Shown piece by piece: positions 6,013 to 48,242 of a DNA stretch of 64,000 nt. The notes below the pieces were generated by a model, which saw only the letters and a program-made list of their open reading frames with translations, was not told the DNA's origin and ran no database searches. The position numbers were made by a program, and so were the translations under genes. The first letter of the stretch is position 1; each line of letters starts with the position of its first letter. The stretch comes from an uncultured Thiomicrospira sp. Lineage in GTDB: Bacteria > Pseudomonadota > Gammaproteobacteria > CAKMZV01. The stretch spans positions 992,001-1,056,000 of the forward strand of contig OZ239628.1 in NCBI GenBank assembly GCA_965195345.1, given 5' to 3'.

Positions 6013-6998
6013 AAGCTTTGGTTTTTGTAGATGATATGTTCTTTGAATTGCGGGAAGTGGAAAGGCCACAGTGTCAAACAAAAGAGGCACTCATTAAAGT
6101 TGAATATTCTGGTATCTGCGGTTCTGACATGCATGCGTGGCATGGACATGATGAGCGTCGACGCCCTCCATTAATACTTGGTCACGAAGTATCAGGAGTA
6201 GTCGTTGAAGGTGCTTTGGAAGGAAGGCGTGTTGCTTTAAACCCTATGATTACTTGTGGAGTTTGTCGCTATTGCAGGGAAAGTAGAGAGAATTTATGTG
6301 CTGATAGGAGTATGATAGGCATGTATAGACCAGGTGGTTTTTCTGAGTACTTAACCATCCCTGAGCAGTGCGTTTTACCTTTTCACGATAGTCTTAAAAC
6401 AGAAAATGCAGCATTAGCAGAGCCTACCGCTGTTTGTTTGCATGCGGTAAAAATGATCGAGCAGCTCAGTTATAGAAAGTTAGAAGAGCAGAATGTGTTA
6501 ATAATCGGAGGAGGGGCTATAGGTATTCTTTGCGCCCTAATACTTAAACATTTCAGTGCTAGTTCTGTGACTATTAGTGAAATCAATCCAGAACGCCTAA
6601 AAAATTGCATCAATATTGGTGGTGTAATGATTAATAATCCATTAGAAGAAGAAATAAACTCAACGAGTTATGATTGTGTTATTGATGCGGTTGGAACGCA
6701 AAAAACGCGTACAGTTGCTATTAATTCAGTTGTGAATGGAGGATGTATAATTCATTTGGGACTGCAGGAGGCTGGTGGAGAAATGGACGCACGCAGTATG
6801 ACACTTAGAGAAATTGCATTTGCTGGAGCATTTACATATACAAAGCAAGAAGTAAAAGATGCATTAGAGTTGCTTGCTTTTGCAGATCTTGGTGATTTTA
6901 ACTGGGTCGAAAAAGCGCCGCTTGCTCAAGGACAGGAAGCTTTTGAAAGCATTCACAGAGCAGAAACACCCTCAGCAAAAATATTGCTTACTCCTTAA
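6009..6998 (+). CDS. hpsP: Zn-dependent alcohol dehydrogenase, DHPS 2-dehydrogenase-like
   Basis: GICGSDMH, GHE, CGVCRYC...C, GGGAIG; ATGA overlap with hpsO. Confidence 0.75.
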   Translation: MKALVFVDDMFFELREVERPQCQTKEALIKVEYSGICGSDMHAWHGHDERRRPPLILGHEVSGVVVEGALEGRRVALNPMITCGVCRYCRESRENLCADRSMIGMYRPGGFSEYLTIPEQCVLPFHDSLKTENAALAEPTAVCLHAVKMIEQLSYRKLEEQNVLIIGGGAIGILCALILKHFSASSVTISEINPERLKNCINIGGVMINNPLEEEINSTSYDCVIDAVGTQKTRTVAINSVVNGGCIIHLGLQEAGGEMDARSMTLREIAFAGAFTYTKQEVKDALELLAFADLGDFNWVEKAPLAQGQEAFESIHRAETPSAKILLTP

Positions 6999-7028
6999 AT
7001 ATAAACAATAAAACCTTTTAGAATAAAC

Positions 7029-8621: not shown

Positions 8622-8752
8622 AAAATCAGAAAAACGTTTTTCTTCATGATTTATTTTCCTTGCATGACTTAGGGAAGATTTTATTTGACGAAAATGATTA
8701 AAAAATCAAGAAGTCACAGTTTATAGACGTCTTATGTCAAATATCTTAATAT

Positions 8753-8782
8753 AAAAAAAGGGGCTTTATCAGCCCCTTTTTT
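8753..8782. terminator. Bidirectional rho-independent terminator between convergent genes
   Basis: AAAAAAAGGGGCT-TTATC-AGCCCCTTTTTT. Confidence 0.9.
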
Positions 8783-8804
8783 GTTATAGGAATATTTGTA
8801 TACG

Positions 8805-11800: not shown

Positions 11801-14800
11801 CATCAGCATCTGTGAAATAGCTTATTACTTGCGCTGAACCACGCACTTCCGTACCTGGCACTTGATTTTGTGTACGACTTGAAGCGGTTACTGCCACTGG
11901 GTTCGCAACTGGTGCTTCATTCACATTAAGTACTGGTACTGTTAATGTTGTCGTTGCTGTTAGGGTACCATCCGATGCTACGACAGCAACCGTCAACGGA
12001 CTATTATTCACGTCTGCTTGTACTAAAGTACGCATAAGTGTTACTTGTCCATTTGTGCTATTTATTGTGAAGGCATTTGTGCTTGGATTGGCAAGTGTAT
12101 ACGTTAATGTATCGCCATCAGCATCTGTGAAATAGCTCGTTACTTGTGCTGAACCACGCACTTCAGTACCTGGCACTTGATCTTGTGTACGACTTGAAGC
12201 GGTTACTGCTATTGGATTTGCAACTGGCGCATCATTCACGTTAAGTACTCGTACTGCTAATGTTGTTGTTGCTGTTAGGCTACCATCCGATGCTACGACA
12301 TCAACCGTCAAAATACTACTATTCACATCCGCTTGCACTAAAGTACGCATAAGCGTTACTTGTCCATTCGTGCTACTGATTGTGAAAGCATTTGTGCTTT
12401 CATTAGCAAGAGAGTACGTCAATGTATCGCCATCAGCATCTGTGAAATAGCTCTGCACTTGTGCTGAACCACGCACCACCGTACCCGCCACTTCATTTTG
12501 TGTACGATCTGCAGCGGTTACTGCCACTGGGTTTGCAACTGGTCCATCATTTACATTAAGTACTGGTACTGTTAATGTTGTCGTTGCTGTTAGGCTACCA
12601 TCCGATGCTGCGACATCAACCGTCAACGGACTACTACTCACATCCGCTTGTACTAAAGTACGCATAAGTGTTACTTGTCCATTTGTGCTACTGATTGTGA
12701 AAGCATTTGTGCTTTCATTAGCAAGTGAATACGTCAATGTATCGCCATCAGCATCTGTGAAATAGCTTTGCACTTGCGCTGAACCACGTACTTCAGTACC
12801 TGCCACTTCATTCTGTGTACGACTTGAAGCGGTTACTGCCACTGGGTTTGCAACTGGTGGATTATCAACGTTAAGCACTGGTACTGTTAATGTTGTTGTT
12901 GCTGTTAGGCTACCATCCGATGCTACGACATCAACTGTTAAAGGACTACTATTCACGTCTGCTTGTACTAAAGTACGCATAAGCGTTACTTGTCCATTCG
13001 TACTATTGATTGCAAAAGCATTTGTGCTTGGATTAGCAAGTGAATACGTCAATGTATCGCCATCAATATCTGTGAAGTAGCTTATTACTTGTGCTGAACC
13101 ACGCACTTCCGTACCCGCCACTTGATTTTCTGTACGACTTGAAGCAGTTACTGCAACTGGATTTGCAACTGGTGCATCATTTACATTAAGCACTGGTACT
13201 GTTAACGTTGTCGTTGCTGTTAGGCTACCATCCGATGCTACGACATCAACCGTCAAAGGACTACTATTCACGTCTGCTTGTACTAAAGTACGCATAAGCG
13301 TTACTTGTCCATTCGTGCTACTGATTGTGAAAGCATTTGTGCTTGGATTGGCAAGTGAATAGGTCAATGTATCGCCATCAGCATCTGTGAAGTAGCTCTG
13401 CACTTGCGCTGAACCACGCACTTCCGTACCTGTCACTTGATTTTGTGTACGACTTGAAGCGGTTACTGCTATAGGGCTTGCAACTGGTGCATTATCAACG
13501 TTAAGCACTGGTACTGTTAATGTTGTTGTTGCTGTTAGGCTACCATCCGATGCCACGACATCAACCGTTAAAGGACTACTATTCACGTCTGCTTGTACTA
13601 AAGTACGCATAAGCGTTACTTGTCCATTTGTGCTACTGATTGTGAAAGCATTTGTGCTTGGATTAGCAAGTGAATACGTCAATGTATCGCCATCGACATC
13701 TGTGAAGTAGCTTATTACTTGTGCTGAACCACGCACCTCAGTACCCGCCACTTGATTTTCTGTGCGACTTGAAGCAGTTACTGCTACTGGATTTGCAACT
13801 GGTGCATCATTTACATTAAGCACTGGTACTGTTAATGTTGTCGTTGCTGTTAGGCTACCATCCGATGCTACGACATCAACCGTCAACGGACTACTACTCA
13901 CATCCGCTTGTACTAAAGTACGCATAAGCGTTACTTGTCCATTTGTGCTACTGATTGCAAAAGCATTTGTGCTTGGATTAGCAAGTGAATACGTCAATGT
14001 ATCGCCATCTGCATCTGTGAAATAGCTTTGCACTCGCGTTGAATCACGCACTAAAGTACCTGTTGAATCATTTTGTGTACGGCTTGAAGCAGTTACTGCT
14101 ATTGGGTTTGCAACTGGAGCATCATTTACATTAAGCACTGGTACTGTTAATGTTGTCGTTGCTGTTAGGCTACCATCCGATGCTACGACATCAACCGTCA
14201 ACGGACTACTACTCACATCCGCTTGTACTAAAGTACGCATAAGCGTTACTTGTCCATTTGTACTATTGATTGCAAAAGCATTTGTACTTGCATTAGCAAG
14301 TGAATACGTTAATGTGTCGCCATCTGCATCTGTGAAATAGCTTTGCACTCGCGTTGAATCACGCACTAAAGTACCTGTTGAATCATTTTGTGTACGACTT
14401 GAAGCAGTTACTGCTATTGGGTTCGCAACTGGTGCTTCATTCACATTAAGCACTGGTACTGTTAATGTTGTCGTTGCTGTTAAGCTACCATCCGATGCTA
14501 CGACATCAACCGTTAAAGGACTATTGCTCACATCCGCTTGTACTAAAGTACGCATAAGCGTTACTTGTCCATTTGTGCTACTGATTGTGAAAGCATCTGT
14601 GCTTGCATTGGCAAGTGAATACGTTAATGTATCGCCATCAGCATCTGTGAAATAGCTTTGCACTCGCGTTGAATCACGCACTAAAGTACCTGTTGAATCA
14701 TTTTGTGTGCGGCTTGAAGCAGTTACTGCTATTGGGTTTGCAACTGGAGCATCATTTACATTAAGCACTGGTACTGTTAATGTTGTCGTTGCTGTGAGGC

Positions 14801-18938: not shown

Positions 18939-19688
18939 TTATAATAAGGCTGGGCTTCTATTGAAGCAGTGATGAGCGATGTCCTCTGGGATGTTGATTT
19001 CTGGAGAATCATACAAACTTTCTATAACTTTTATTTTTCCACCGTACTCTAGTATTCGCAATTGTTCTGATTTTTCAGATAATTCAAGAGTTTTGGGTGC
19101 TCGATTAGCAAGACTTAATGCGAACCACTTACGAGAGGCATGAATACCAAGCTGTTTGAAATAAGTTGAGTTTGTTTTTTTATCACGATTGTATGGAATA
19201 ACGTTCCGCGAAAAATACATGGCATATCCATTTTTATCGCTAACCACTTTGTAGGTGTTTGAATTGTTAATTTCTTTTAAATCATTTATTCGATATGAGA
19301 GTGTGGCAGCTGCAAAATCCTCAGATGCATCGTTTTTGAAACAAGCAATAATTTGTTCGATACTTTGTGAATTAACAAAAGGTTGATTACCCGGTATGCT
19401 AACCAAAATACAATTATCTGGCAAAGCTGTTGCATTGGCAGCGTGAGCTACTTGATTAATTCCAGAAGTCAAGCTCATTGGAGTTAGGATGACTTTTCCG
19501 CCAAATCCTTCAATTCCTTCTGCTATCTGCGCATCATCGGTAGCCACATAAACTTCTTTGATGCCTTTTGCTTTTACACAACGAGAATAAAGTTGTTTAA
19601 TAATTTTTTTTTTATCTGTCAATGCTAAAGACTCGTTAGGAACGCACGATGATCTATAACGAGCAAGAATGATAGCAACAGCGGTCAT
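18939..19688 (-). CDS. kdsB: CMP-Kdo synthetase homologue with degenerate catalytic motifs
   Basis: KdsB fold motifs recognisable (ARY, VATDD, AMYFSR..IP, LE..EK.EQLRILE.G.KI), but the RLPGK, QGDEP and VDT motifs are altered. Confidence 0.7.
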   Translation of the reverse strand: MTAVAIILARYRSSCVPNESLALTDKKKIIKQLYSRCVKAKGIKEVYVATDDAQIAEGIEGFGGKVILTPMSLTSGINQVAHAANATALPDNCILVSIPGNQPFVNSQSIEQIIACFKNDASEDFAAATLSYRINDLKEINNSNTYKVVSDKNGYAMYFSRNVIPYNRDKKTNSTYFKQLGIHASRKWFALSLANRAPKTLELSEKSEQLRILEYGGKIKVIESLYDSPEINIPEDIAHHCFNRSPALL

Positions 19689-19717
19689 TACATGCGAAGG
19701 TATAGAGACGATAATAG

Positions 19718-19740
19718 CAGAGTGCTTGATTCACTCTGCC
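19718..19740 (-). terminator. Hairpin, possible terminator near the distal island boundary
   Basis: GCAGAGTG-CTTGATT-CACTCTGC, followed on the - strand by TATTAT. Confidence 0.4.
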
Positions 19741-19964
19741 AAGAATTTTCAAAACCACCTTTGCAGAGGCACGTTAATTCTTTCGAAAATTCAATCATAT
19801 TATTTCAATTGTAAGTTGTTCAATTTTTACAAATTCCTCGTGGCATGTAATATACCATGCTCATTAAATGTGTACTCGTCTTCAGTTAGCCACGTTTGCA
19901 ACAACTTGCGGAAGTTACCACTTGGCTTCTTTCTACTGTTAAACCACTCACTCACCGCTTCAGC

Positions 19965-22280
19965 CTATACAGCTTCCTTGTATAAATGTTCCTGAAACTC
20001 TATGAACGTACGCCGTATATCTTGAAAGTTGCCCAGCTGCTGCTCTGCTGCGTGCGTGCTTCCATACTTTGCTATAAGCACGGTGCTTAGTTTTGTGTCA
20101 TCTAATTCGTCAACGCCAACCTCAACATAATTACGCAGCACATAACTGACAAACGCACGTTGCTGATCATTCAGCAGCGTGTATATATTATCTTCGTTTG
20201 TTTTCACACGTGCAGCACGTTTGACTGTTTCTTTGGCGTATGCAACGTATTGCAGCACATCGAATAAATCGCTGTCTTCCGCGTTTATGAGTTCCTGCAA
20301 CTTGAGCAAATCATCTTTATGGCAACCTTCTTTTTCCAAGTTATTCATTAAGTCTCTGCGAGTGAGTGGATTTGCCCAAATTTCTCGTAGTTTTTCTTCA
20401 CTACCAAATAAGCTTGGCAACTGCAGCGTATCAAACAGTTTTTGTAAAAACTCTTCAGCGCTTATGGGTTTTCCATCAACATAAAAGTAAGTGGAAGTCA
20501 TACTTTGCAGTTCGCGCACTTTGCCGTCGGCAAGACGTATTTTTAGCTTCTCAGGTTTGTCGCCATCGCCTCCGCCTTTACCTCCGTCCCCGCCATCTTC
20601 ACCAGCACCAGTGCCGCCAGTACTACCACGACCAGTGTCTATCGGCTCTTGGGGTTCGCCATCCCACTCGTCGTCAAGGAACAAGTGATAAGCATTAACA
20701 AAATCTACGATTGTGAAATAATGTTTGCCTTCAAACAGCCGCGTACCGCGTCCAATAATCTGCTTAAACTCAATCATGCTGTTTACAGGACGCAGTAGGA
20801 CAATGTTGCGCACATTGCGTGCATCAACGCCTGTAGTGAGTTTTTGGCTGGTAGTCAGGATTGTTGGGATAGCTTTTTCGTTGTCTTGAAACTGCTTTAG
20901 ATAGGCTTCCCCAATCTTGCCGTCATCAGCCGTGACACGCACACAGTAGTCCACAGATGTGTTGCGTGCTTCCTGATTAATTAAATCTCGTATCATTGCA
21001 GCATGTGCTTGGTTAGCACAGAACACGATGGTTTTTTCGTTTTGATTTATTGCTGCAAGCATATCCTGCACTCGCTTGCGTTCTCGCGCTTTAATCTCAA
21101 TCTTCTTGTTGAAGTCTTTCTCTTCGTAGACATACCCTTCACGCACTTGACCTTCAATGACTTCGTCATCTGAGGTGTACACATATTCATCGATTGAGGT
21201 TTGAATACGCTTTACTTTGAATGGGGTTAAAAAACCGTCTTGAATGCCTTCTTTGAGGCTGTAGATATAAACAGGTTCGCCAAAATAGTCATACGTGTCC
21301 ACGTTGTCATCACGCTTTGGCGTAGCAGTTAAGCCGAGATGCACAGCACTGTCGAAGTGATTAAGTATATCTCTCCAACTGCTTTCGTCATTAGCGCCAC
21401 CTCTGTGGCACTCATCAATAATTACAAAGTCAAAAAAGTCTTTTTCGTATTCGCCAAAGTAAGGTTTGCCATCCGCGCCACTCATGAATGTTTGAAAGAT
21501 TGTGAAGAACACACTGCCGTTTTTTGGCACTTCGCCTTTTTTGCTTATCTCGCTGGGGTTTATTCGTATCAGTGCATCATCGCTAAATGCGCCAAAGTCC
21601 AAAAAGGCTTGATTGGCTAAGATATTTCTATCGGCGAGAAACAGTATTCTTGGCGTACGCTTGCCGTCACGCTGCTTGTTCCAGCGACTTTTAAACAGCT
21701 TCCATGCAATCTGAAACGCAATAAACGTTTTGCCTGTACCTGTTGCCAGTGTCAGTAGGGTACGTTTTTCGTCATTGGCAATGGCTGTCATTACGTTATT
21801 AACAGCCAGTTCCTGATAATAGCGTGCCTGCTTCGTTCCGTTTAAGTTTTCAAATGGAACAGCATTAAATTTCTCAAGCCATTCATTAGGCTCAGCAAAG
21901 GTTTTATTCCATAGTTCTTCAGGCGTTGGAAAAGCAGTTACTAATCCCTCTGTGCCTGTTTTGTGGCAGATTTGATAAATTTCATTGCCGTTGGCAGCGT
22001 AGCTGGTTTCGAGATGCAGTTTTTGTGCATACAGCTTTGCTTGTGCTACGCCTTCGCTAACTTCTAACTCGTTGTTCTTTGCTTCAACTACAGCCAGCTT
22101 GCGGTTTTTATAACTCAGTACATAGTCAGCACTCAGTATGCCTTGGCGAATACCGCCCGCTTTTATCTCGCCTGCATTGATCTTGTATTCACGCTGAACA
22201 CGTACGTCACCGCCAGTAATCCAGCCAGCGGCTTCAAGCTGTTTGTCGATAAATTCAGCACGTGTATCAGCTTCGTTCAT
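19965..22280 (-). CDS. hsdR: Type I restriction enzyme R subunit (EcoEI/EcoAI-like)
   Basis: NEADTR, ADYVL...VVEAK nuclease motif, LATGTGKT, DECHR, TATP, QIIGRGTR. Confidence 0.95.
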   Translation of the reverse strand: MNEADTRAEFIDKQLEAAGWITGGDVRVQREYKINAGEIKAGGIRQGILSADYVLSYKNRKLAVVEAKNNELEVSEGVAQAKLYAQKLHLETSYAANGNEIYQICHKTGTEGLVTAFPTPEELWNKTFAEPNEWLEKFNAVPFENLNGTKQARYYQELAVNNVMTAIANDEKRTLLTLATGTGKTFIAFQIAWKLFKSRWNKQRDGKRTPRILFLADRNILANQAFLDFGAFSDDALIRINPSEISKKGEVPKNGSVFFTIFQTFMSGADGKPYFGEYEKDFFDFVIIDECHRGGANDESSWRDILNHFDSAVHLGLTATPKRDDNVDTYDYFGEPVYIYSLKEGIQDGFLTPFKVKRIQTSIDEYVYTSDDEVIEGQVREGYVYEEKDFNKKIEIKARERKRVQDMLAAINQNEKTIVFCANQAHAAMIRDLINQEARNTSVDYCVRVTADDGKIGEAYLKQFQDNEKAIPTILTTSQKLTTGVDARNVRNIVLLRPVNSMIEFKQIIGRGTRLFEGKHYFTIVDFVNAYHLFLDDEWDGEPQEPIDTGRGSTGGTGAGEDGGDGGKGGGDGDKPEKLKIRLADGKVRELQSMTSTYFYVDGKPISAEEFLQKLFDTLQLPSLFGSEEKLREIWANPLTRRDLMNNLEKEGCHKDDLLKLQELINAEDSDLFDVLQYVAYAKETVKRAARVKTNEDNIYTLLNDQQRAFVSYVLRNYVEVGVDELDDTKLSTVLIAKYGSTHAAEQQLGNFQDIRRTFIEFQEHLYKEAV

Positions 22281-23440
22281 ACAGCCTCCCTTTGCAGTTC
22301 TTGTGCGAGGATGGCGGATTTCAACTTCTTTAATTCGTTTGTTTTTTTTACTTCTACTAGCAAGGTTTTTTCAACGTGTATTTTTGCACTCACCACCATA
22401 TTAAGCAGTCTCTCAAGCATTTCTCCATCTGGGCACGGAATGGGTATTTCATTGAGCTTTTTTTGGTTAAGTTTTGGTTGTGCCATACCTGAGATATACT
22501 GCGATAGATTTGTAGCATTCAGATATAGCTCAACCCATTTTTGTAATTTGGAATTTTCAAATTTCAGCACATGAGCATGATTGTTTACCCAACATTTTCC
22601 GCTTACAGAAAAAGCTATCGGATACGCCCTCATAAGCAGGTTTGCACCATCTTCAGAAATAAGCAGTAAATCATCGTCAAAGATGTACTCCTCAACATAA
22701 TCTACAATTCCGCTAGCGCCATAATACGGCACGTTACCAACTACTCGTTTAGATTTTGTAATTGGAATTCGCTTTGCATCTAGATTTTCAGAGAGATGCG
22801 ATAGATTTTTGATTTCCCACCGATACAAATCATTATTTAGAATTTCACGCATTATGCCCGACGACAAATTAGTATAGTTTGAGATTTTATCGTCTGTAAT
22901 TTTTATCGTTTCATCAATCTCAGCAAACGCAGCATCCAGTTTGGCTACGATGCGTTGTTGTTCTGCGAGAGGGGGGAGTGGAACGACAATCTCTTTGTAC
23001 TGGGCAAGCTGAAGGTTTCGTATGCCTGTTGAGTGACGCTGCATAGGTTCTGTCTTTCCACTAAGATAAAGGAAGTGTAGAAAACGATGAAGAAACTGTG
23101 CATCAAGCTCACTTTCGTCAAATACCCTTAGTCGCGCTGTGAAGTTGCTTAGTGAGTATGGAATATCTGCCGATGCATTATGAATACAAACTCTCCCAAC
23201 TGGCGTTTTATCACCACCACCAGACTTTTCTAAGATGATGTCATGCTTTTTAACTTCTCTCTTTTCTAGTTGCTTTGCTTCAACATCAAGTTCAACAACC
23301 TCTGAGTAGTCAAGTTGTCCAGAAGAAGTAAAGTTAGTATTACGTAATACTAACGCTTTAACGAATGGTTCCTTCTTTCCTTTCCATAGTCCGCTTTGAA
23401 TGCCACATAACTCCGATAGCTTTTTTATCTTCCACATCAC
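22277..23440 (-). CDS. hsdS: Type I RM specificity subunit
   Basis: Two TRDs separated by PLPPLAEQQRIVAKLD; C-terminal LKSAIL; overlaps hsdM and hsdR. Confidence 0.92.
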   Translation of the reverse strand: MMWKIKKLSELCGIQSGLWKGKKEPFVKALVLRNTNFTSSGQLDYSEVVELDVEAKQLEKREVKKHDIILEKSGGGDKTPVGRVCIHNASADIPYSLSNFTARLRVFDESELDAQFLHRFLHFLYLSGKTEPMQRHSTGIRNLQLAQYKEIVVPLPPLAEQQRIVAKLDAAFAEIDETIKITDDKISNYTNLSSGIMREILNNDLYRWEIKNLSHLSENLDAKRIPITKSKRVVGNVPYYGASGIVDYVEEYIFDDDLLLISEDGANLLMRAYPIAFSVSGKCWVNNHAHVLKFENSKLQKWVELYLNATNLSQYISGMAQPKLNQKKLNEIPIPCPDGEMLERLLNMVVSAKIHVEKTLLVEVKKTNELKKLKSAILAQELQREAV

Positions 23441-24888
23441 AGCAACTCCTTGATTGCCTGCAATGCTTGTGCTGCTTGCACATCTAACTGTTCAATCTCT
23501 GCGATGATTTCTTGCGGTGTACGATTATCTACTTCTTCAACGGTGTTTGGATTGTTAACAGTTAAATCCCATGTATCTTTGTTTACCGTTGCTCCATCGA
23601 CCAACCAGCTGTTGTCACTCAGCTGTTGCGTTTTAGCCATCTCAACAAATTCAGCTAAATCCTTTTCATTGAGCGGGTTTGTCTTACCCATATTTCTGCC
23701 AACATTGAGTTGGTAGTACCAAATGTTCTCAGTGGGTTTGCCCTTTTCGAAAAACAAGACAACCGTTTTAACGCCTGTGCCAATAAATGCTCCACTGGGT
23801 AAGTCCAGCACAGCAAACAGATTGCATTCTTCGAGCAACTGCCTACGCAGTGCAACGCTGGCATTGTCTGTATTGCTGAGAAAGGTGTTTTTAATCACAA
23901 TGCCACAGCGTCCGTTTACTTTGAGCATCTTTATAAAATGCTGCAGGAACAGATACGCTGTTTCGCTGGTGGCTACTGGGAAGTTTTGCTGTACTTCTGC
24001 ACGCTCTTTTCCGCCGAACGGGGGATTAGCGAGCACAACATCCACTCTATCTTTTTGCTGTATGTCAGCAATGTTTTCGCCAAGCGTATTTGTGTGCACA
24101 ATGTTGGGCGCTTCAATGCCATGCAGTATCATGTTCATTATGCCAATCACGTAGGCTAATGACTTTTTCTCTTTGCCATACAAGGTATGTGATTGCAGCT
24201 GCTCATACTTGCGAGCACTAAGTTCCTTGCTGCGCATGTGAGAGTACGCTTCACATAAAAATCCTGCACTACCCACAGCACCGTCATAAACAGTTTCACC
24301 GATAACTGGATTAATAACTTTGACAATGCTTTTGATGAGTGGACGAGGCGTGTAATATTCGCCGCCATTCCTGCCAGCATTCCCCATGTTCTTGATTTTG
24401 TCTTCGTACAAGCTGCTAAGCTCATGCTTGTCGTCATTGCTGAGAAAGCTGAGTTCGTCTATTTTGTTGATTACTTCACGCAGGGCATAGCCACTTTGCA
24501 ACTTGTTGCTTATCTCGCTGAAGATTTCGCCGATTTTGTATTCCAGCGTATTGGCACTGTCTGCGGATATTTTGAATTGCTTGAGATAGGGAAACAATTT
24601 GAAGTTAACAAACTCGCGTAAATCATCGCCTGTGAGTGCTGCGTTGTGATCCAGCTTGCCATCGCTGGATTTGGGTGTTGCCCAAGTTTTCCAGCTAAAT
24701 TCATCACTCAGTATCGAGTTGTAAACTTCACCATTGAGCGATGCGGAGTTGGCTTTTTCAGTCTCGTAGTCATCCAAGTACTTTAGAAACAGTATCCAGC
24801 TTGTCTGCTCGATGTAGTCAAGCTCACTGCTGCAACCAGCGTCTTTCCATAAAGTATCATCAATATTCTTAAACGCTGCTTCGTACAT
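23437..24888 (-). CDS. hsdM: Type I RM N6-adenine methyltransferase
   Basis: GEYYTPR, YDGAVGSAGFL, NPPF motifs. Confidence 0.95.
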   Translation of the reverse strand: MYEAAFKNIDDTLWKDAGCSSELDYIEQTSWILFLKYLDDYETEKANSASLNGEVYNSILSDEFSWKTWATPKSSDGKLDHNAALTGDDLREFVNFKLFPYLKQFKISADSANTLEYKIGEIFSEISNKLQSGYALREVINKIDELSFLSNDDKHELSSLYEDKIKNMGNAGRNGGEYYTPRPLIKSIVKVINPVIGETVYDGAVGSAGFLCEAYSHMRSKELSARKYEQLQSHTLYGKEKKSLAYVIGIMNMILHGIEAPNIVHTNTLGENIADIQQKDRVDVVLANPPFGGKERAEVQQNFPVATSETAYLFLQHFIKMLKVNGRCGIVIKNTFLSNTDNASVALRRQLLEECNLFAVLDLPSGAFIGTGVKTVVLFFEKGKPTENIWYYQLNVGRNMGKTNPLNEKDLAEFVEMAKTQQLSDNSWLVDGATVNKDTWDLTVNNPNTVEEVDNRTPQEIIAEIEQLDVQAAQALQAIKELL

Positions 24889-24906
24889 TGAGTGCTTATC
24901 CTTAAA

Positions 24907-25053
24907 TTACTTTGGTTTTCTGCCTTCGGCAATTGAGCCTTTTAGCATCCCAGCAGTAAAGCCGAACTCTTTACAAAGTCGTTTCACTTCTTTCAATGCA
25001 TTAGCACGTTTGTTTTTCTGTGCTTTAACCATCTGCTGCTGAATTGCTTTCAT
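24907..25053 (-). CDS. Small basic 48-aa protein resembling part of an H-NS-family oligomerisation region (not in ORF track)
   Basis: Hand translation MKAIQQQMVKAQKNKRANALKEVKRLCKEFGFTAGMLKGSIAEGRKPK; stop 18 nt upstream of hsdM start. Confidence 0.55.
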   Translation of the reverse strand: MKAIQQQMVKAQKNKRANALKEVKRLCKEFGFTAGMLKGSIAEGRKPK

Positions 25054-25083
25054 TTCAGCTTTCAACTTGTCATGTGATTTTAT

Positions 25084-25110
25084 CAGACACTTACTTTGAA
25101 TAAGTGTCTG
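25084..25110. promoter_or_regulatory. Perfect 10-7-10 inverted repeat upstream of the small ORF-hsdMSR operon
   Basis: CAGACACTTA-CTTTGAA-TAAGTGTCTG. Confidence 0.5.
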
Positions 25111-25508
25111 TGACAGCGTATAGGTTTGTTATTAGGTTGAAAAGCACGTTTTCTACGTCTAATGTTATGTGTTGTAATTAGGCAAAAGTATTTCAGCGTC
25201 TCACTATGCCAGTCCGTTTACTTGTCAATCACATAGCCATACGGCTACAAACCGTACAGTTTTGACGGTTTTAACTATACAGTAACTTACTGGTTTTTTG
25301 ATTCGGTAACGGTGGTTGTGGACGGATAGGTGTAAAGTCAGTTCGTTCTGTGTCTTTTTTTAAGTGCCAAGTTTGCTCGCAGAGTTACTATGATTTCCAG
25401 TAGTCACACGTTTGTGCAACATTCTGTGTAACTGCATGAGAAAACCTCAATTAAAGCAACGATTGATTTTTTTATGTAAAAGTAATGTGCAAGTTAAATA
25501 TAGTTTAA

Positions 25509-25521
25509 AATCAATGACTTA
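25509..25521 (+). promoter_or_regulatory. IHF consensus site beside att core A
   Basis: AATCAA-TGAC-TTA matches WATCAANNNNTTR; a one-mismatch counterpart (AATCAACACTTTC) sits at 30480-30492 beside the guaA core. Confidence 0.55.
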
Positions 25522-25533
25522 AAATATAAAAGC

Positions 25534-25700
25534 TATTCCCACTCAATGAGTAATACTCTCTGAAACCCTTTATTTAAAGGGGTTTTAAAAAAGTTTGTAT
25601 TAACTTTGTATAAGAGAGGTTTCATTTTCTACCCATTGTTGTATGACTATACCTATAACCTAGGTGTTTCATACAAAGTTTGTATCAGAAAATTATACAT
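25534..25700. repeat. att-like site copy A (core + palindrome + arm-type repeats)
   Basis: TATTCCCACTC identical to guaA 3' end (30505-30515); CCCTTTA-TT-TAAAGGG; AAGTTTGTAT 25591, AACTTTGTAT 25602, palindrome ATACAAAGTTTGTAT 25671-25685. Confidence 0.85.
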
Positions 25701-25834
25701 GTTTTGTTCACTGACTCACTGTGTCAGAAGATAAAATACTGCCCTGGTCTAACTGGTTTTTCTTGGTTGATTCAATGAAGATTAAAGTGAAAAAGGAGAC
25801 TCAATCCTACCTTATCAATTGCGAACCGATTGTT

Positions 25835-26035
25835 TCAGCAACAAGCATCTCCCTCTTGAATAGGCGGACAAACAACATCTCCAAAAGAACAAAAAATACA
25901 GCAATCACCCTTATTAGGTTTTAAAAGTGCTTTACAATTTGCACATTCATAAAAAAATTGACAACTATTAGTCGGCATTGTTTCAGTTTTTTTATATCCA
26001 CAATTAGGGCAAGTTATAGTTGAGTTTAATTCCAT
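25835..26035 (-). CDS. GDCCVxC-type Cys-rich metal-binding protein
   Basis: STITCPNCG, E.MP..SCQFFYEC..C..LLKP..GDCCIFCSFG.V.CPP.Q. Confidence 0.85.
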   Translation of the reverse strand: MELNSTITCPNCGYKKTETMPTNSCQFFYECANCKALLKPNKGDCCIFCSFGDVVCPPIQEGDACC

Positions 26036-26038
26036 TTA

Positions 26039-26419
26039 TCAACACCTTTTAGATATGGGTTTTATCACATCAATTATTGCCACAAAAGACATCAACAAAA
26101 GTGCCACATAAAAAATCGTCCTACTAAATGCAAATTCCCAAAAGACATAGAGAACTAAAAAAATCACAAACGGACTTGTAGTATTTAAAAAACCACGCAG
26201 ATGGTTTTTATGATTAAACCACGAATATAAATTTGAAACCAAGACTACTAAAGTAAAAAAAGGTAGCAGGTAGTTAATTGCAATACTCTCAAAAACAGAC
26301 AGAAATCCCAACCCCATAACAGAAGCAAGTGAAATGAATGCAGGAAAACATGCGGGACAACTTAAAGCAGCAATCCAAATACCAACAGTTCCTATTTTAT
26401 CTGTATGAAATCTTTTCAT
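26039..26419 (-). CDS. merC: MerC-family mercury/metal transporter
   Basis: DKIG..G..IAALSCPACFPA...L.S..GLGFL; 4 TM segments; C-terminal P..KRC. Confidence 0.8.
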   Translation of the reverse strand: MKRFHTDKIGTVGIWIAALSCPACFPAFISLASVMGLGFLSVFESIAINYLLPFFTLVVLVSNLYSWFNHKNHLRGFLNTTSPFVIFLVLYVFWEFAFSRTIFYVALLLMSFVAIIDVIKPISKRC

Positions 26420-26427
26420 TATTGCAC

Positions 26428-26590
26428 TCCCACTTAATGAGTTACCCTCTGAAACCCTTTATCTAAAGGGGTTTTAAAAAAGTTTGTATTAACTTTGTAT
26501 GAAACCATGTCCTTGAAACAGTTGTTATTACTGCATTTGTGCGATTTTAGTGTGTTTTCATACAAAGTTTGCATGACAGAATTATAACAT
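26428..26590. repeat. att-like site copy B (direct repeat of copy A, 891 bp apart)
   Basis: 26428-26500 nearly identical to 25537-25611; second conserved block ATACAAAGTTTGCAT at 26560-26574. Confidence 0.85.
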
Positions 26591-26708
26591 ACAATTATTT
26601 CCAAAAACCCCCTTATCAAAATCCAAACTCAATGAGATACTGAAAGAGTAGTTTCAAAAATCATTACATTTGTAGTGTCTTAAAAACTTAATTTTTATAA
26701 ATACTTTT

Positions 26709-27293
26709 ATGAACTTTTTAAAAGAGAATTTTCAGTCTTCTAATGAACTTGTTAAACAAGTCATGATGCAAGATATACAACGAAGAAGTTATCAAAGATT
26801 TCTAAAGACATTCAAAACTGACAATATGTTATTCCTCGTATTGCACTTGAATAATTACCTGTCTAAAGAACAAAATCCATTTGAGATACAGAAGTCGTTG
26901 AAGAGATTTTTCAGAAGAGTTGATAACAAAGTGTTCAGTAGTAAATCAAACAAACGACTTCAAAGATATGTTGTTATTGAGAACTTAAAGAAACAGAAAC
27001 ATCAGAAAAGACTTCACTCTTCTAGAGTATCTAACAGAACTCATGTTCAGATTGCGATTGATGTTCCTAGACATCTCACAAAGAGTAAGTTGAGAGATAT
27101 CATTCGTAGTTCTTTAGATAATCAGATATGCAATCTATCTCATGTTGATGTTGTTGATAGATACGATGAACTGATTGATTACAACACGAAAGATATGTAT
27201 TCAATCAAACCAACAGATACAGATATAACATTTGATGAAGTGAACTCATACAGAGTAAAGAAGAGAGTTCATGAACATCGTGAAGTGCATTAA
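26709..27293 (+). CDS. Putative HUH-endonuclease / rolling-circle replication initiator
   Basis: Ordered motifs LFLVLHL (I-like), YVVIE...RTHVQIAI (II, HUQ variant), IDYNTKD (III, YxxK); pattern recognition only. Confidence 0.55.
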   Translation: MNFLKENFQSSNELVKQVMMQDIQRRSYQRFLKTFKTDNMLFLVLHLNNYLSKEQNPFEIQKSLKRFFRRVDNKVFSSKSNKRLQRYVVIENLKKQKHQKRLHSSRVSNRTHVQIAIDVPRHLTKSKLRDIIRSSLDNQICNLSHVDVVDRYDELIDYNTKDMYSIKPTDTDITFDEVNSYRVKKRVHEHREVH

Positions 27294-27340
27294 CTTGCCG
27301 AGAATCAGTCTTTACTGACTCTCAAAATGTTTATTTCGTT

Positions 27341-27577
27341 ATGAAGTGCATTGAGTTGCATTGTGATTTTTATTGTCTGAATAATGAGAAAAGAGATATG
27401 ACAATTGCAAAGAGTAATAGATGCAGAGAACTGTTAAAAGAACTAGAACAGATTCAATACGACTATCTAGAAACCAACATGATTAGACTGACAGAAACAG
27501 AGAAACGATTCTACAAACATCGTAAGAAGATTATTCTCAAATATGTGTCAGATTATCTAGATACACAAAACGCATAA
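27341..27577 (+). CDS. Hypothetical small helical protein (start may be ATG 27398)
   Basis: ORF in co-oriented cluster; no recognised motif. Confidence 0.55.
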   Translation: MKCIELHCDFYCLNNEKRDMTIAKSNRCRELLKELEQIQYDYLETNMIRLTETEKRFYKHRKKIILKYVSDYLDTQNA

Positions 27578-27600
27578 ATAGTAGTTAGAGATTAAATTAA

Positions 27601-27993
27601 ATGAAGACTTCATCAAAAATCATTCTAGAGAACATTAGAATTGATAAACAATTAAGAATAAATGTTGCACTCGTTAACGATAAACAATTAAACACATTAT
27701 TTAATGATATAAATCATCACATTGATGAATTAAATAATACCAAGATGAATGAACACGAGAAAATATTCACTCTTGAAACATTGATAAAAGATTTAATTGA
27801 ATTTAATAACAAAACTTTCTTCAAACTTTATACAACTACTAATGAAAAAGTGCGAGAAACAGAACGAGTAAAGAGATTAAAGTCATTTTTAGACATCAGA
27901 AAAGATGTTGAAGATGAATTACCTGTTCCTGATGATGATGAAGATGATGTTCCTTCAATTCCACCTGCATTAAAGAGAAAATTAAACCTATGA
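27601..27993 (+). CDS. Hypothetical helical protein with acidic linker and short conserved-looking C-terminal tail
   Basis: 130-aa ORF ending DDDEDDVPSIPPALKRKLNL; ATGA overlap with next ORF. Confidence 0.65.
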   Translation: MKTSSKIILENIRIDKQLRINVALVNDKQLNTLFNDINHHIDELNNTKMNEHEKIFTLETLIKDLIEFNNKTFFKLYTTTNEKVRETERVKRLKSFLDIRKDVEDELPVPDDDEDDVPSIPPALKRKLNL

Positions 27994-28193
27994 AACCAAA
28001 AAGATATTCACAAAATCCTATTCAAGTCAGAATACACAATGTTCAAGAAGACACTTTGAATAAAATAATGAACGATACTGAATATTGCACTAGAAAGAAT
28101 ATTATTTCTAAAAGTGATGCAGTTCGTTCTGCATTATTTTCATTATGTAAAGACTACGAACAAGAGAAATATAATCAGTTAATACAGTCATAA
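27990..28193 (+). CDS. Ribbon-helix-helix (CopG/Arc-like) DNA-binding protein
   Basis: Beta strand IQVRI, helix QEDTLNKIM, then SKSDAVRSAL typical of RHH helix B. Confidence 0.6.
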   Translation: MKPKRYSQNPIQVRIHNVQEDTLNKIMNDTEYCTRKNIISKSDAVRSALFSLCKDYEQEKYNQLIQS

Positions 28194-28275
28194 CTCATTA
28201 CATTAAAACCACTTAATATAGTCGTGTGCGTTCGGGGAAAAGTCAGTCTTAAACAGTTAATACATTGAGAGTCAA

Positions 28276-28404
28276 ATGAACGAAAAAGTCATTCAGAAAC
28301 AACTAGAGTCGTTTGAGAAACAGTTTGATAAGACTGTTCAAGAGTTCAAAAGTCTTCTAAAAGTATTCAAACAAGAATTAAAGAACTCACAAAAGAACAG
28401 ATAG
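28276..28404 (+). CDS. 42-aa amphipathic/coiled-coil peptide (not in ORF track)
   Basis: Hand translation MNEKVIQKQLESFEKQFDKTVQEFKSLLKVFKQELKNSQKNR. Confidence 0.4.
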   Translation: MNEKVIQKQLESFEKQFDKTVQEFKSLLKVFKQELKNSQKNR

Positions 28405-28496
28405 AGTTGTAAATCAAACTAAAGTCTAATTTACACTTTTTCTAGAAAGTGAAATGTTGATTTTAATAGTGTTTCAGAGTGTCTATTTGCAGAAAA

Positions 28497-29084
28497 TTAG
28501 ATAGACATTGATTTACATTGTTGTGCGACTCTCGTATGACTGATTCCTACTCTATCTGCAATCTTTCTATAAGATTTACCTTTCTTTCTTAACTCCATGA
28601 TTTGATATTCAATATCTTCATCAACAACATCTTTTCTTCCAAATTTAACACCATCTTTCAATGCTCTTTTGATTCCGATTATCTGTCTTTCTCTTCTCAT
28701 GTTGTTTTCTAACTCTGCAAAGATTCCAACCATATAGAAGAAACTACTTCCCATAGTTGTAGATGTATCAATTCCTTGTTTGTAAGAATAGATATCAATG
28801 TCTAAATCTTTGAGTTGTGATAGAACAGACACAAGATGTTTCATGTTTCTTCCTAATCTATCTATTGACCAAACGACTAACTTATCAAATTTTTTTCTAG
28901 ATGCATCTTTCAACATTCTCTTTAATTCATCTCGTTCATTAACACCTTTAGTTCCACTTATCGTTTCATCATATTCTTCTACTACAATCCAATCATTTCG
29001 TTCACAGATTTCGTAGAGTTCTAGTCTTTGATTTTCAGTAGTCTGATGACTTGTTGAACATCTCATTAAAATTGCAACTCTCAT
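28497..29084 (-). CDS. Serine recombinase, resolvase/invertase family, with C-terminal HTH
   Basis: RCST..Q (catalytic Ser), ISG, VVWSIDRLGRN, FAELE, GVKFGR, SYRKIADRVGIS HTH. Confidence 0.92.
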   Translation of the reverse strand: MRVAILMRCSTSHQTTENQRLELYEICERNDWIVVEEYDETISGTKGVNERDELKRMLKDASRKKFDKLVVWSIDRLGRNMKHLVSVLSQLKDLDIDIYSYKQGIDTSTTMGSSFFYMVGIFAELENNMRRERQIIGIKRALKDGVKFGRKDVVDEDIEYQIMELRKKGKSYRKIADRVGISHTRVAQQCKSMSI

Positions 29085-30352
29085 ATATCTTCTCCTTTCT
29101 CTTCAACTGTTCCTTCTCTTGTGATTGAAAACGATTTCAATGCCTGTGTTCTCATAGACTCTTCTTTGTATTTCAGATAAGTGTCTTCAATGTGTTTGAT
29201 ACTTGTTCCTGCAAGTTTTGAAATATCAATGATATTCACACCACTCATAACACGCATTGTTATTCCAAAGTGTCTTAACGAATACCAAGTCAGATTTCTT
29301 TCCTCTTTCCACTCTTTAAGACTGATACCAATTCCAGTCATTAAATTTCTCCAATGTTTTGCATACTTCTGTGCAGAAATTGTTGCAGTTCCATTTACAG
29401 ATGCAAAAACTAAATCATCTTTACCTGTGAACTTCTGTCGTTTCTTCAATCTTTCAAAATACTCACCACCTCTACAGATGATTTTTCTATTTGATTTAAC
29501 TTTTGATGTTTCTGCACGAACATTGATATGTGCAAGAAGATGTTGTTTCTCATTTTCATCAAAGACTCGTTCAATCTTTTGCACATCTTTCCATTTCAAC
29601 TGTCTTAATTCCCCTACTCTCATGCATGAGTTAGATGAGATGAGAACATAATCTCTGATTATCATTCGTTCTAATTGTTCTGATTCATCAGTATTGTTCT
29701 TATCTGCAACATAACTTCTCATGAAACGAATCAGATTGTCGTATTCTTCAAGAGTGAATGTATCTCTTTTTCCAACATCATCTTTTCTGATACTGATTTT
29801 CTTAAAATCAAATTCATCAAAATGAGATATGTTCAAACGATAAAGAAACTTCATCATGTGATTGATTGTTGATTGTTCATTTCTGATTGTGATGTCAGTT
29901 GCATCTTTGAGTTTTTTTCTCAATCGTTGATATTCAAAGATTGAACTTCTATCAAGTTCTGCAACTTTCGTATTCTTACCAACGATTTTCATGAAGTGTT
30001 TTAACTGTGTGCGAATCGTAGTCCAACGACCTTGAACGATTGTATTTCCGATGTCTTTCTCTCTGTCTTCTAGATACAAATCAATTGCAGTTTCAACAGT
30101 CATTCCAAAGACTTTCTTTCCTTGTTTTACATTCGTAGATAACTCCATTCCTAACTCTCTTCCACGAATGAGTGCAGTTTCTAAATCTTTTGTTCTTAAT
30201 GACTTACGATAGTGTTTCTGTTCTTCCTTGATATACATTCTGAACTGAAAAACATCACCACTCTGTTTGACTCTAAACACTTGTGCGAGTCCATCTAGAA
30301 TGTCGTGTTGACTATGAAGATTATTACCTTTTGATACTCTTTTTTTTCTCAT
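29081..30352 (-). CDS. Tyrosine integrase with N-terminal arm-binding region
   Basis: MRVGELRQLKW (R), SKVK (K), YSLRH, AGTS, DTYL (Y); YRKSLRTKD arm-domain motif; adjacent to guaA 3' end; ATG 30352 (track start 30376). Confidence 0.92.
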   Translation of the reverse strand: MRKKRVSKGNNLHSQHDILDGLAQVFRVKQSGDVFQFRMYIKEEQKHYRKSLRTKDLETALIRGRELGMELSTNVKQGKKVFGMTVETAIDLYLEDREKDIGNTIVQGRWTTIRTQLKHFMKIVGKNTKVAELDRSSIFEYQRLRKKLKDATDITIRNEQSTINHMMKFLYRLNISHFDEFDFKKISIRKDDVGKRDTFTLEEYDNLIRFMRSYVADKNNTDESEQLERMIIRDYVLISSNSCMRVGELRQLKWKDVQKIERVFDENEKQHLLAHINVRAETSKVKSNRKIICRGGEYFERLKKRQKFTGKDDLVFASVNGTATISAQKYAKHWRNLMTGIGISLKEWKEERNLTWYSLRHFGITMRVMSGVNIIDISKLAGTSIKHIEDTYLKYKEESMRTQALKSFSITREGTVEEKGEDI

Positions 30353-30380
30353 TTTTACAATGTTTCGTAATAACAACAGA

Positions 30381-30515
30381 AAGTTTGCACTTATCTTTGT
30401 ATCTACAGAATCATTATACTATGAAAATACAGTCAAAATCAAAAGTTTGTATGAAGTTTGTATGAAAGAAATCCCTTAAAATCAACACTTTCAGATGATT
30501 TTGTTATTCCCACTC
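30381..30515. repeat. Integrase-proximal att site: arm-type repeats and core in the guaA stop region
   Basis: AAGTTTGTATG twice in tandem at 30443-30464; AAGTTTGCAC at 30381; core TATTCCCACTC at 30505-30515. Confidence 0.8.
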
Positions 30516-32084
30516 TATTGTTGCTGGAGGCTTGCCTGAAATGTCGTAAACTACTCGTGCCACTTCGGGGACTTCATTGATAATCCTATTTGATACGTAT
30601 CCAAGTAAGTCATATGGTAAGTGCGCCCAAACAGCGGTCATAAAGTCAACAGTCGTAACTGCTCTCAAGGCAACAACGTAGCCAAAACGTCGAGCATCTC
30701 CAACAACACCTACGGATTTAATCGGCATGAAAACGGTAAATGCTTGTGATGTTTTTTCGTAATAATTTTTTTTATGTAATTCTTCAATAAAAATTGCGTC
30801 GCATCGTCTAAGAATGTCAGTATACTCTGCTGTTACTTCACCAATAATGCGCACGGCTAATCCCGGACCAGGGAAAGGATGGCGGTGCAATAAGTCTTTA
30901 TCTAGCCCTAAATGTGCGCCTATCTTGCGGATTTCATCTTTAAATAATTGGCGCAAAGGTTCGAGTAATTTCAAATTTAATTTATCGGGTAATCCGCCTA
31001 CGTTATGATGCGATTTGATGGTTTTTGCATTAGCGTTTGTATTGCCAGCAGATTCAATAACATCAGGATAAATAGTACCCTGAGCAAGGTAACTTATTTG
31101 TTTTTTTTCTTTTGCGTAGTCTTCAAAAACTTCGATGAAACTGCGTCCGATGATTTTACGTTTTTTTTCAGGATCTTCGACTCCTTTAAGCGCGCTGATG
31201 AATTTTTCTTCAGCATTGATGAAGTCCACTTTGATTCCTAGGAGATTGGCAAATAGTGCTTTAACTTGTTCTTCTTCGAACAAGCGGAGCAAACCATTGT
31301 TCACAAAGACACATTGCAGTCGATCACCGATGGCTTTGTGTAAAAGTAGCGCTGCAACTGAAGAATCTACGCCTCCAGATAACGCTAAGAGTACGTGTTC
31401 ATCAGCTTTAATTGTTTGTTGTAGATTGTTGATGATGTCCGCAGTAATATCGCTCGTTTTCCAATGGTTATCACAGCGGCAGATTTGCAGGGCAAAGCGT
31501 TCAAGAATGTTTTGCCCTTGAATAGTATGTGTAACCTCAGGATGAAACTGGATGGCGTACAGGTTTTTCTCTATATTGGCCATTCCTGCAAGAGGGCAGG
31601 AATCGGTCGAAGCCATGCAAACAAATCCAGGTGGCAATTTGGTTACTTGATCTCCGTGGCTCATCCAAACATCTAATAAGCCATGCCCGTGCTCATTGTG
31701 TCTATCTTCTATGTCTTTCAATAATGGAGTGTGTCCGCGCGCTCGAACTTCAGCGTGTCCGTATTCATGTTTAGCTGAGGATTTTACAGCGCCCCCAAGT
31801 GTTTGAGCCATTAACTGCATGCCGTAACAAATACCAAGTATAGGAATATTCAGTAGGAATAATCCTTGAGGAGCAGATAGTGATTGATCTCCATAAACCG
31901 ATTCGGGTCCTCCAGATAAAATAATCCCAGCAGGGTTGAAATCTTTTATTGAATCAATGGTGCAGTTGTGCGAATACACTTCGCAATAAACACCAATTTC
32001 CCTTATTCGACGGGCGATTAGTTGTGTAAATTGCGATCCAAAATCAAGGATGAGTAAGTGATGAGCATTTTCATTTTTTTCCAC
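30504..32084 (-). CDS. guaA: GMP synthase (glutamine-hydrolysing)
   Basis: [41 protein letters not shown]. Confidence 0.98.
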
Positions 32085-48165: not shown

Positions 48166-48242
48166 GGCTATATAGCTCAGTTGGTTAGAGCGCATCACTC
48201 ATAATGATGAGGTCCCTGGTTCAAGCCCAGGTATAGCCACCA
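48166..48242 (+). tRNA. tRNA-Met (CAT), elongator type
   Basis: GGCTATA acceptor stem, TAGCTCAGTTGGTTAGAGC D arm, CATCA-CTCATAA-TGATG anticodon arm, GGTTCAAG T loop, encoded CCA. Confidence 0.95.

Follow-up and report, generated by a model that had tools for sequence, protein, structure and literature searches.

What are the two long direct repeats that bracket a merC-family mercury transporter gene downstream of guaA in an uncultured Thiomicrospira sp., and does the DNA between them move? The locus lies in a stretch of 64,000 nucleotides (nt) (OZ239628.1, positions 992,001-1,056,000), referred to here as the window; all coordinates are window positions. The repeats, each about 165 bp long, are located at 25534-25700 (copy A) and 26427-26590 (copy B) and enclose merC and a gene for a GDCCVxC-domain protein. 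We consider it probable (roughly 0.72) that they are attachment (att) sites bounding a small integrase-less merC cassette, and that this cassette belongs to a widespread family that piles up behind guaA of marine bacteria and moves between very different hosts. In particular, the enclosed 891-bp unit was found at ten other loci, nearly identical over its whole length and with homology ending at the att cores.

Layout of the guaA locus and its repeats

In the guaA sense, the order of the locus is guaB, guaA, an att core, a 127-nt arm, a tyrosine integrase gene, a serine recombinase gene, four small open reading frames (ORFs) on the other strand, a degenerate core, arm B, core B, merC, the GDCCVxC gene, arm A and core A, followed by an ORF of 52 amino acids (aa), hsdM, hsdS, hsdR and kdsB. 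This agrees with the minus-strand order given in an earlier note on this DNA (att B, merC, GDCCVxC, att A and a mini-ORF with hsdMSR, co-oriented with the integrase). The features are as follows.

30504..32084, minus strand: guaA (GMP synthase), Pfam GATase and GMP_synt_C; its terminal codons, IEWE-stop, are the chromosomal attachment site
30508..30518: guaA-proximal core TCCCACTCTAT; its reverse complement includes GAGTGGGA and encodes I-E-W-E, with the stop next
30377..30503: guaA-proximal (P') arm; direct AAGTTTGTAT twice at 30443-30463, degenerate sites twice at 30381-30404
29081..30376, minus strand: tyrosine integrase, 431 aa, full length; phrog_1 E 7.7e-32, Pfam Phage_integrase 26 bits (slightly below the cut-off)
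28497..29084, minus strand: small serine recombinase (resolvase/invertase type), 195 aa; Pfam Resolvase E 2.2e-38; overlaps the integrase stop
26709..28193, plus strand: four small ORFs of the putative carrier island (194, 78, 130 and 67 aa), with homologues in the island of SAR86 isolate HIMB1674
26622..26636: degenerate core TCCAAACTCAATGAG, at the inner edge of the island backbone
26427..26590: att copy B, distal (P-arm) site of the integrase island; core 26428-26438, palindrome 26450-26476
26039..26419, minus strand: merC-family mercury transporter, putative cassette gene 1; Pfam MerC 50.1 bits, NCBIfam merC 130.7 (below the 140 cut-off)
25835..26035, minus strand: GDCCVxC-domain protein, 66 aa, putative cassette gene 2; NF041374, 103.4 bits against a cut-off of 40
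25534..25700: att copy A, the putative cassette's own arm and core; core 25537-25547, palindrome 25561-25587
25537..26427, minus strand: 891-bp mobile unit (core, arm, GDCCVxC, merC), recurring in 10 other loci
19965..25065, minus strand: 52-aa ORF and type I restriction-modification genes hsdM, hsdS and hsdR (Pfam), 3' of core A

Both repeats were recovered at the positions previously reported, 891 bp apart. Specifically, a repeat search returned a 58-nt block (25554-25611 and 26443-26500, 97% identity) and a 31-nt block (25667-25697 and 26556-26586, 87% identity), each with a spacing of 889. The core-to-core distance is 891 (25537 and 26428), and a 2-nt indel beside the core accounts for the difference. 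Pairwise alignment of A and B gave two conserved blocks with a diverged spacer of ~55 nt between them, folding gave an 11-bp stem at 25561-25587 and at 26450-26476, and a motif search found the 10-nt motif twice in direct and twice in inverted orientation in each distal arm (A, 25591-25611 and 25671-25685; B, 26480-26500 and 26560-26574). These analyses confirm the guaA-like core, palindrome, arm repeats and diverged spacer that had been ascribed to each repeat. The cores read TCCCACTCAAT in A, TCCCACTTAAT in B and TCCCACTCTAT at the guaA stop (30508). The window contains 18 matches to AAGTTTGTAT with at most one mismatch versus 10.9 expected, and 10 of them fall within the three att regions (four in A, four in B and two in the guaA-integrase interval). 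The 16-nt core is weak by itself, with 5 of 100 shuffles yielding at least two matches; the reality of the repeat is settled by the 58-nt block and its matches in other genomes, not by the 16-nt core.

Copies A and B are attR-type sites, each with a guaA 3'-end core, a palindrome and four arm repeats, and not a local duplication. From the layout and the arm sites it follows that two units succeed one another, with B as the distal att site of the first and A as that of the second, while the guaA junction serves the first as its proximal att site; the duplicated att site of the earlier note is thus replaced by separate sites of two units. The guaA-adjacent unit (30504 down to 26428, 4.1 kb) would be a minimal carrier island: besides the tyrosine integrase, the serine recombinase and the four small ORFs, it has the guaA-proximal arm and, at its far end, a distal arm that closes with core B. 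Beyond it, 26427 down to 25537 (891 bp) would be a discrete integrase-less cassette with its own distal arm (copy A) and core. Only merC and the GDCCVxC gene lie between the cores at 25537 and 26428, with no recombinase gene.

The palindrome, mostly of the form AAACCC..GGGTTT, lies a median of 14 nt after the core among the arms compared from this and other loci, and a perfect stem of at least 6 bp is present in 43% of 156 arms versus 12.6% of shuffles. As a transcription terminator the palindrome was rejected: a consensus scan gave no terminator-like site, and the fold z-scores were only -0.6 to -2.0. The best promoter-like match lies in the guaA-proximal arm (30442-30413) and points to the integrase gene.

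The degenerate third core noted previously at ~26622-26636 is present as TCCAAACTCAATGAG and is kept in the HIMB1674 island and in two further loci (L162 and L047). A weak hairpin-like stretch and TTTGTAG-like words follow it (window 26622-26680; HIMB1674 locus L039, 11373-11430). It may be the decayed original arm of the island backbone, in which case arm B would be an added gene-less unit. The first ~75 nt of arm B (26427-26500) resemble arm A in the window and in L047. The metagenome variant L162, whose island is otherwise 98.4% identical to that of the window, differs in these ~75 nt (oriented 898-970). Because L162 has other sequence there, the near-identity of arms A and B over the first 75 nt suggests a lineage-specific gene conversion patch.

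The merC unit and related arrays in other genomes

The merC unit forms the largest cluster of units, with 11 loci, and the other ten copies are 99.1-99.7% identical to that of the window over all 891 nt. One carrier is the complete genome of SAR86 isolate HIMB1674 (L039), whose GuaA is 57% identical to that of the window. Homology across the merC-unit loci ends at the cores; in the comparison with L022, for example, 99% identity extends over 906 bp from 25534 to 26438 and ends there. The neighbours of the unit in the 11 loci are of four kinds on the right and at least seven on the left. In eight loci the right neighbour is a metal island that has CGTGTAAC-type arms and encodes RND pumps of the Cus/Czc type together with CopC and CopD; in HIMB1674 it is an island with GTGTCA-type arms, and the remaining two kinds are the island of the window and its L162 variant. 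In raw reads from one seawater run, which pile up on 25416-26618, 18 reads depart from the reference at 25533-25535 and continue as at least three other sequences; a further four depart at 25687, where the arm ends. In another locus (L024), the same arm is 99% identical over 214 bp and is followed by unrelated DNA. Variable cargo beside the repeat, which the earlier note had proposed to look for in metagenomes, is therefore found (L024 and the 11 merC loci). A merC search of representative genomes gave three loci, two of them already in the set. Judged by these comparisons, the 891-bp unit is a discrete, horizontally spread module.

Two genomes of the same genus, with GuaA 66-67% identical to that of the window, each contain just one guaA core, without an array within 20 kb. 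The metal island exceeds 11 kb and contains two RND pumps, CusB/CusF-like proteins, CopC and CopD (L127, 1-11160); it accompanies the merC unit in L127, L022, L055, L059, L077, L083, L121 and L123, a functional pairing of metal genes. Binning also placed contigs bearing the arm or the merC unit in Poribacteria, Nitrospina, Rhizobiaceae, Rhodobiaceae and Flavobacteriales genomes (L015, L019, L021, L027 and L167), and these unusual bins are either binning errors or signs of a wider host range.

Species-representative genomes, metagenomes and viral contigs were scanned with an arm pattern of 24 specified bases. It matched 25 stretches in the species-representative genomes (mainly SAR86 and further marine Gammaproteobacteria) and at least 120 in the metagenomes; the viral contigs gave no match. 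From these, 147 oriented loci were compiled, the window included, leaving out L001-L003 (the window itself), L012 and L016 (inside L039 and L005), L006 and L007 (distant integrases) and the guaA loci L033-L038 and L040-L044. At least one core (at most one mismatch) was present in 131 of the 147 loci, at least two in 86 and at least three in 39. Complete units between cores numbered 150 and fell into 118 clusters at 90% identity and 80% coverage, with a median length of 1,278 bp (interquartile range 863-2,065 bp). guaA was reached in 33 of the 131 core-bearing loci, and the array lay downstream of it every time. Eleven multi-copy clusters were compared (0, 1, 3, 4, 6, 7, 9, 11, 13, 14 and 16), and the neighbours differ on at least one side in seven of them (0, 1, 3, 6, 13, 14 and 16). 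A 1001-bp unit, for example, adjoins guaA in L023 but is separated from it by one unit in L026 and L030, and its left flank differs in all three loci. SAR86 locus L005 has an island flanked on one side by guaA and on the other by an arm that agrees with that of the window block by block.

Some units consist of an arm and a core without a gene (94-208 bp; L020 4192-4299, L160, L051, L101, L096 and L109), and some start with a longer copy of the guaA 3' end of ~33 codons (L009, oriented 1645-2724; L070, oriented 4739-10156). Many metagenome contigs stop within ~100 nt of an arm, as assemblies are expected to break at a repeat common to many contexts.

Behind the same core, about a dozen types of arm repeat occur, among them 89 distinct TTTGTAT-type arms. 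In the window, the AAGTTTGTAT type is found on both sides of the integrase island. In HIMB1674, both arms carry GTGTCA-type repeats, and the integrase is 29-32% identical to that of the window, whereas the serine recombinase is 94% and the small ORFs are 49-90% identical. Arm type thus tracks integrase type, and the arm repeats are putative arm-binding sites. The catalytic residues R253, K292, R368, H369 and Y400 are nearly invariant in 10 full-length relatives of the window integrase, and an N-terminal segment of ~60 residues is conserved. Relatives numbered 623 in an environmental protein set (E <= 1e-10); one in a Porticoccaceae genome is 76% identical and one in a SAR86 genome 68%. By tblastn, the plasmid collection gave no match, and the only and best phage match was a Clostridium phage integrase at 25% identity. 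The integrase matches general phage integrase profiles only, and no NCBIfam family, the integron integrase included, matches it at E <= 0.01, which, as far as the integrase is concerned, upholds the view that the system is distinct from IntI/attC integrons.

A 1.1-kb unit of HIMB1674 (L039, 9189-10305) has GTGTGTAG-type repeats at both ends and contains two ORFs: one of 176 aa, P-loop kinase-like, and one of 82 aa, homologous only to the N-terminus of the integrase. The four small ORFs of the window island had no match in Pfam, PHROG or NCBIfam. The 194-aa ORF (26709-27293) contains HVQ and YNTK motifs, and an Atlas lead assigns REP_ORF2-G2P, a rolling-circle Rep family, to 14% of the members of one cluster; Foldseek gave no match at E <= 0.001 with a single-sequence model of predicted local distance difference test (pLDDT) score 56.6. 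As a lead only, this ORF is possibly a rolling-circle Rep.

Beyond core A, the 52-aa ORF, which has a homologue left of a core in L013, and the hsdMSR genes possibly form an older unit. Inspection of its putative left end (19689-19964) by eye gave no convincing core or arm, nor was a distal att site recognised. In G004, a genome of the same family, hsdR, hsdS and hsdM are 74-82% identical to those of the window and lie directly after guaA, convergent with it and opposite in orientation to those of the window (L043, G004:C25, 1-6100; L042); this assembly has two such guaA-hsd loci. A 2,848-aa ORF occupies 8805-17351 on the minus strand, just beyond waaA and kdsB. The sole tRNA gene of the window is at 48166-48242, and Rfam gave no match at E <= 1 across 24800-30600.

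Origin and movement of the units

The units have the character of gene cassettes. A hidden Markov model (HMM) built from the family of the window integrase was run on the 150 complete units and matched ten of them, eight at full length and two as fragments. Full-length integrases were always at the guaA-proximal end of units of 4.0-7.2 kb, and just one of the 123 units of <=3 kb had an integrase remnant; the merC unit is among the 122 that had none. In 25 loci with a real guaA and a complete unit next to it, this first unit carried an integrase in 6 cases and lacked one in 19, and 17 of those 19 units were <=2.2 kb. Among the ORFs in representative units of <=2.5 kb, 91 share the orientation of guaA and 27 have the opposite one. 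Of 213 distinct cores, 200 have a stop codon after IEWE in the guaA frame (TAA 103, TAG 49 and TGA 48), and nearly every unit can therefore restore an intact guaA end. ATG-led frames of at least 60 codons start -3 to +13 nt from the core at 40 of the 213 junctions, versus 94 of 1,470 random positions. merC is one of these, with GTGGGAG, 7 nt and then the ATG, which is 8 nt from the core, and the junction string GTGGGAGTGCAATAATG that was said to link core B to merC is present. Of 107 cargo ORFs of at least 80 aa, two were set aside for a translation error and the other 105 match 74 Pfam families, none of which dominates; the largest group is beta-lactamase-fold hydrolases, with four members.

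We propose that the tyrosine integrase, docked on the arms, would exchange strands within GAGTGGGA. By one route, the carrier would excise using its proximal att site together with any distal att site downstream, the composite would integrate at guaA of a new cell, and the carrier would later leave alone, stranding cassettes next to guaA. By another, a cassette circle would be integrated in trans. Both would leave integrase-less cassettes stacked behind guaA in the same transcription direction as guaA. The data are compatible with either route, and the carrier-composite route would be the simplest fit for cassettes without a guaA-proximal arm. The earlier proposal that an arm-dependent integrase accumulates cassettes in tandem is borne out as far as the arrays (at least two cores in 86 of the 147 loci) and the match of arm and integrase types are concerned. 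As no excision product was seen, we infer the capture step itself, that is, catalysis by the window integrase.

A broader version of this proposal can be put forward tentatively at best. The guaA 3' end would be a shared integron-like expression platform of marine Gammaproteobacteria, receiving promoterless, co-oriented, purpose-built cassettes, each of which restores the guaA stop and uses GGGAG of the core as a ribosome-binding site. About a dozen arm-specific integrases on transient 4-kb shuttle islands would drop in and pick up cassettes, and cells without an integrase of their own would keep a swappable array transcribed by read-through from guaA.

Several observations weigh against the integrase-driven cassette reading. 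In none of the 11 merC loci is the unit directly beside guaA, and in eight of them it follows one metal island of another arm type (CGTGTAAC). The merC cassette has no guaA-proximal arm, and lambda-type integration normally requires an arm on that side. No close relative of the window integrase is present in HIMB1674 or in three other genomes that carry TTTGTAT-type arms; a complete 4.0-Mb genome and two SAR86 genomes with such arms gave no integrase match at E <= 1e-6. Many cassettes would therefore be stranded in these genomes or moved by something else. By our own arithmetic, ~7 of the 11-nt cores (one mismatch) are expected by chance in ~0.9 Mb. Finally, the read mining for circles and junction products suggested in the earlier note gave none: contigs of three runs of the same organism contained no circle or deletion junction at the cores (reference 19000-31000), and ~3% of one raw-read seawater metagenome, with a depth of 3-8 on the same interval, contained no core joint. 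These missing products are no evidence against excision; contigs cannot show rare forms.

The alternative that survives best is pure decay as in cis-mobilizable elements, whereby the small units would be eroded integrase-bearing guaA islands that travel only passively with a neighbour. It fits the HIMB1674 unit that keeps both arms and the 82-aa integrase N-terminal fragment, the 204-aa integrase fragment in L073, the gene-less units of 108-208 bp, the degenerate core inside the window island and the recurrence of the merC unit behind the same metal island in eight loci; a review of integrative and mobilizable elements describes this route in three steps (PMC5704250). We nevertheless consider decay unlikely, since 122 of the 123 units of <=3 kb are without an integrase trace (though decay could be complete), and the core-abutting ORFs, the guaA orientation and the guaA stop at 200 of the 213 junctions are tidier than random erosion. 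Identical units with differing neighbours (the merC unit, the 1001-bp unit and clusters 6, 13, 14 and 16) also argue against it.

Shuffling of units by homologous recombination between conserved arms and cores, instead of by an integrase, seems quite improbable. The junctions fall at the 11-nt core despite unrelated neighbour arms, as where merC stands beside CGTGTAAC- or GTGTCA-type arms, and the read breakpoints at 25533-25535 coincide with the outer edge of the core, whereas the near-identity of 58-75 nt between arms and the conversion-like patch in the first 75 nt of copy B (in the window and L047, not in L162) speak for such recombination. Still less credible is excision of units between direct sites by the serine recombinase acting at the core-adjacent palindrome. 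This enzyme does follow the integrase in all five distinct carrier islands, it is 94% identical between the window and HIMB1674 versus ~30% for the integrases, and the palindrome is enriched beside cores (43% versus 12.6%, as given above). The changes of context, however, map to the core and not to the palindrome, and the palindrome is ruled out as the site of the enzyme by palindrome-free arms in L066 and in the L162 island, the recombinase of which is 100% identical. A one-off local duplication of the att region without mobility can be dismissed, for although the repeat has just two copies in the 1.92-Mb genome, both at this locus, and was found in none of 40 related genomes searched, the same unit and arm recur at many unrelated loci, where cargo and neighbours differ.

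Known systems and implications for marine bacteria

The closest tested precedent for integrase-less cassettes behind guaA is GIsul2 with CR2-sul2: its att sites at guaA share the core 5'-GAGTGGGA-3', its integrase experimentally excises and integrates the integrase-less CR2-sul2 unit, and two CR2-sul2-like units in tandem at the attR of a related island were reported (PMC9376610). GIsul2 resembles the window locus in insertion at the guaA 3' end, in the same 8-nt core at each junction and in an integrase-less unit beside an integrase-bearing island. In contrast to GIsul2, the window island has no recognised alpA-type gene or transfer gene, the units described here are mostly single, promoterless-looking genes with a 165-bp arm and are of dozens of kinds, about a dozen arm types occur, and the hosts are streamlined marine bacteria. 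guaA is also the target of the epsilon15 integrase cluster (PMC8138268) and of PIME elements (bioRxiv 10.64898/2026.01.12.698999).

Tandem accretion with decayed cis-mobilizable elements has been reviewed, and composite excision was both proposed and observed (PMC5704250). Elements of this kind (ICESt1/ICESt3 type) are likewise att-flanked and without recombination genes, and form tandems with an integrase-bearing element at a housekeeping-gene 3' end. They are defined as decay products, however, whereas the units here are uniform, 122 of the 123 small ones having no integrase remnant, and no conjugation module is near the units of the window. Tycheposons of Prochlorococcus (10.1101/2020.12.28.424599) are similar in that small integrase and replication modules carry cargo in streamlined ocean bacteria, repeated integration at one site displaces older elements outward, att remnants are scattered, and the cargo consists of plug-in cassettes. 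Their targets are tRNA genes instead of guaA, and the available part of the tycheposon text mentions neither guaA nor SAR86. Given GIsul2/CR2-sul2 (PMC9376610), cis-mobilizable elements and tycheposons, the idea of capture is less new than the earlier note held. An unassembled hypervariable region has been noted in SAR86 (PMC3358033); in the available literature on SAR86 or guaA cassette arrays, no description of the present arrays was found, and supplements may hold relevant tables.

Integrons are similar in their ordered, mostly single-gene, co-oriented cassettes with their own recombination sites on a fixed platform. Integrase-less attC clusters illustrate that such arrays can exist without a nearby integrase. 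Here, in contrast, no integron-integrase model matches the integrase, a housekeeping gene serves as the platform, and the sites, by inspection, are a guaA core with direct and inverted arm repeats and not a folded attC. The pdif modules of Acinetobacter plasmids are small gene modules bounded by recombinase sites, with the recombinase encoded elsewhere; these are XerC/XerD sites without arms, on plasmids, and nothing at the window locus suggests Xer.

Few ocean bacteria are more abundant than SAR86 and its neighbours, whose genomes are very small and for which few routes of gene exchange are recognised. The present arrays bear on how such streamlined bacteria exchange genes: the merC unit is 99% identical in hosts whose GuaA proteins are just 57% identical, and the cargo includes hydrolases, transporters, metal handling and restriction systems. 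If the cassette reading is true, a guaA site exchanging dozens of one-gene units between such hosts would explain part of the hypervariable gene content of these bacteria. It would also offer a tractable system (one integrase, a 165-bp site and an 11-nt core) for the movement of integrase-less cargo, and would extend the GIsul2/CR2-sul2 mechanism, known from antibiotic-resistance islands, to a far larger natural pool of cassettes.

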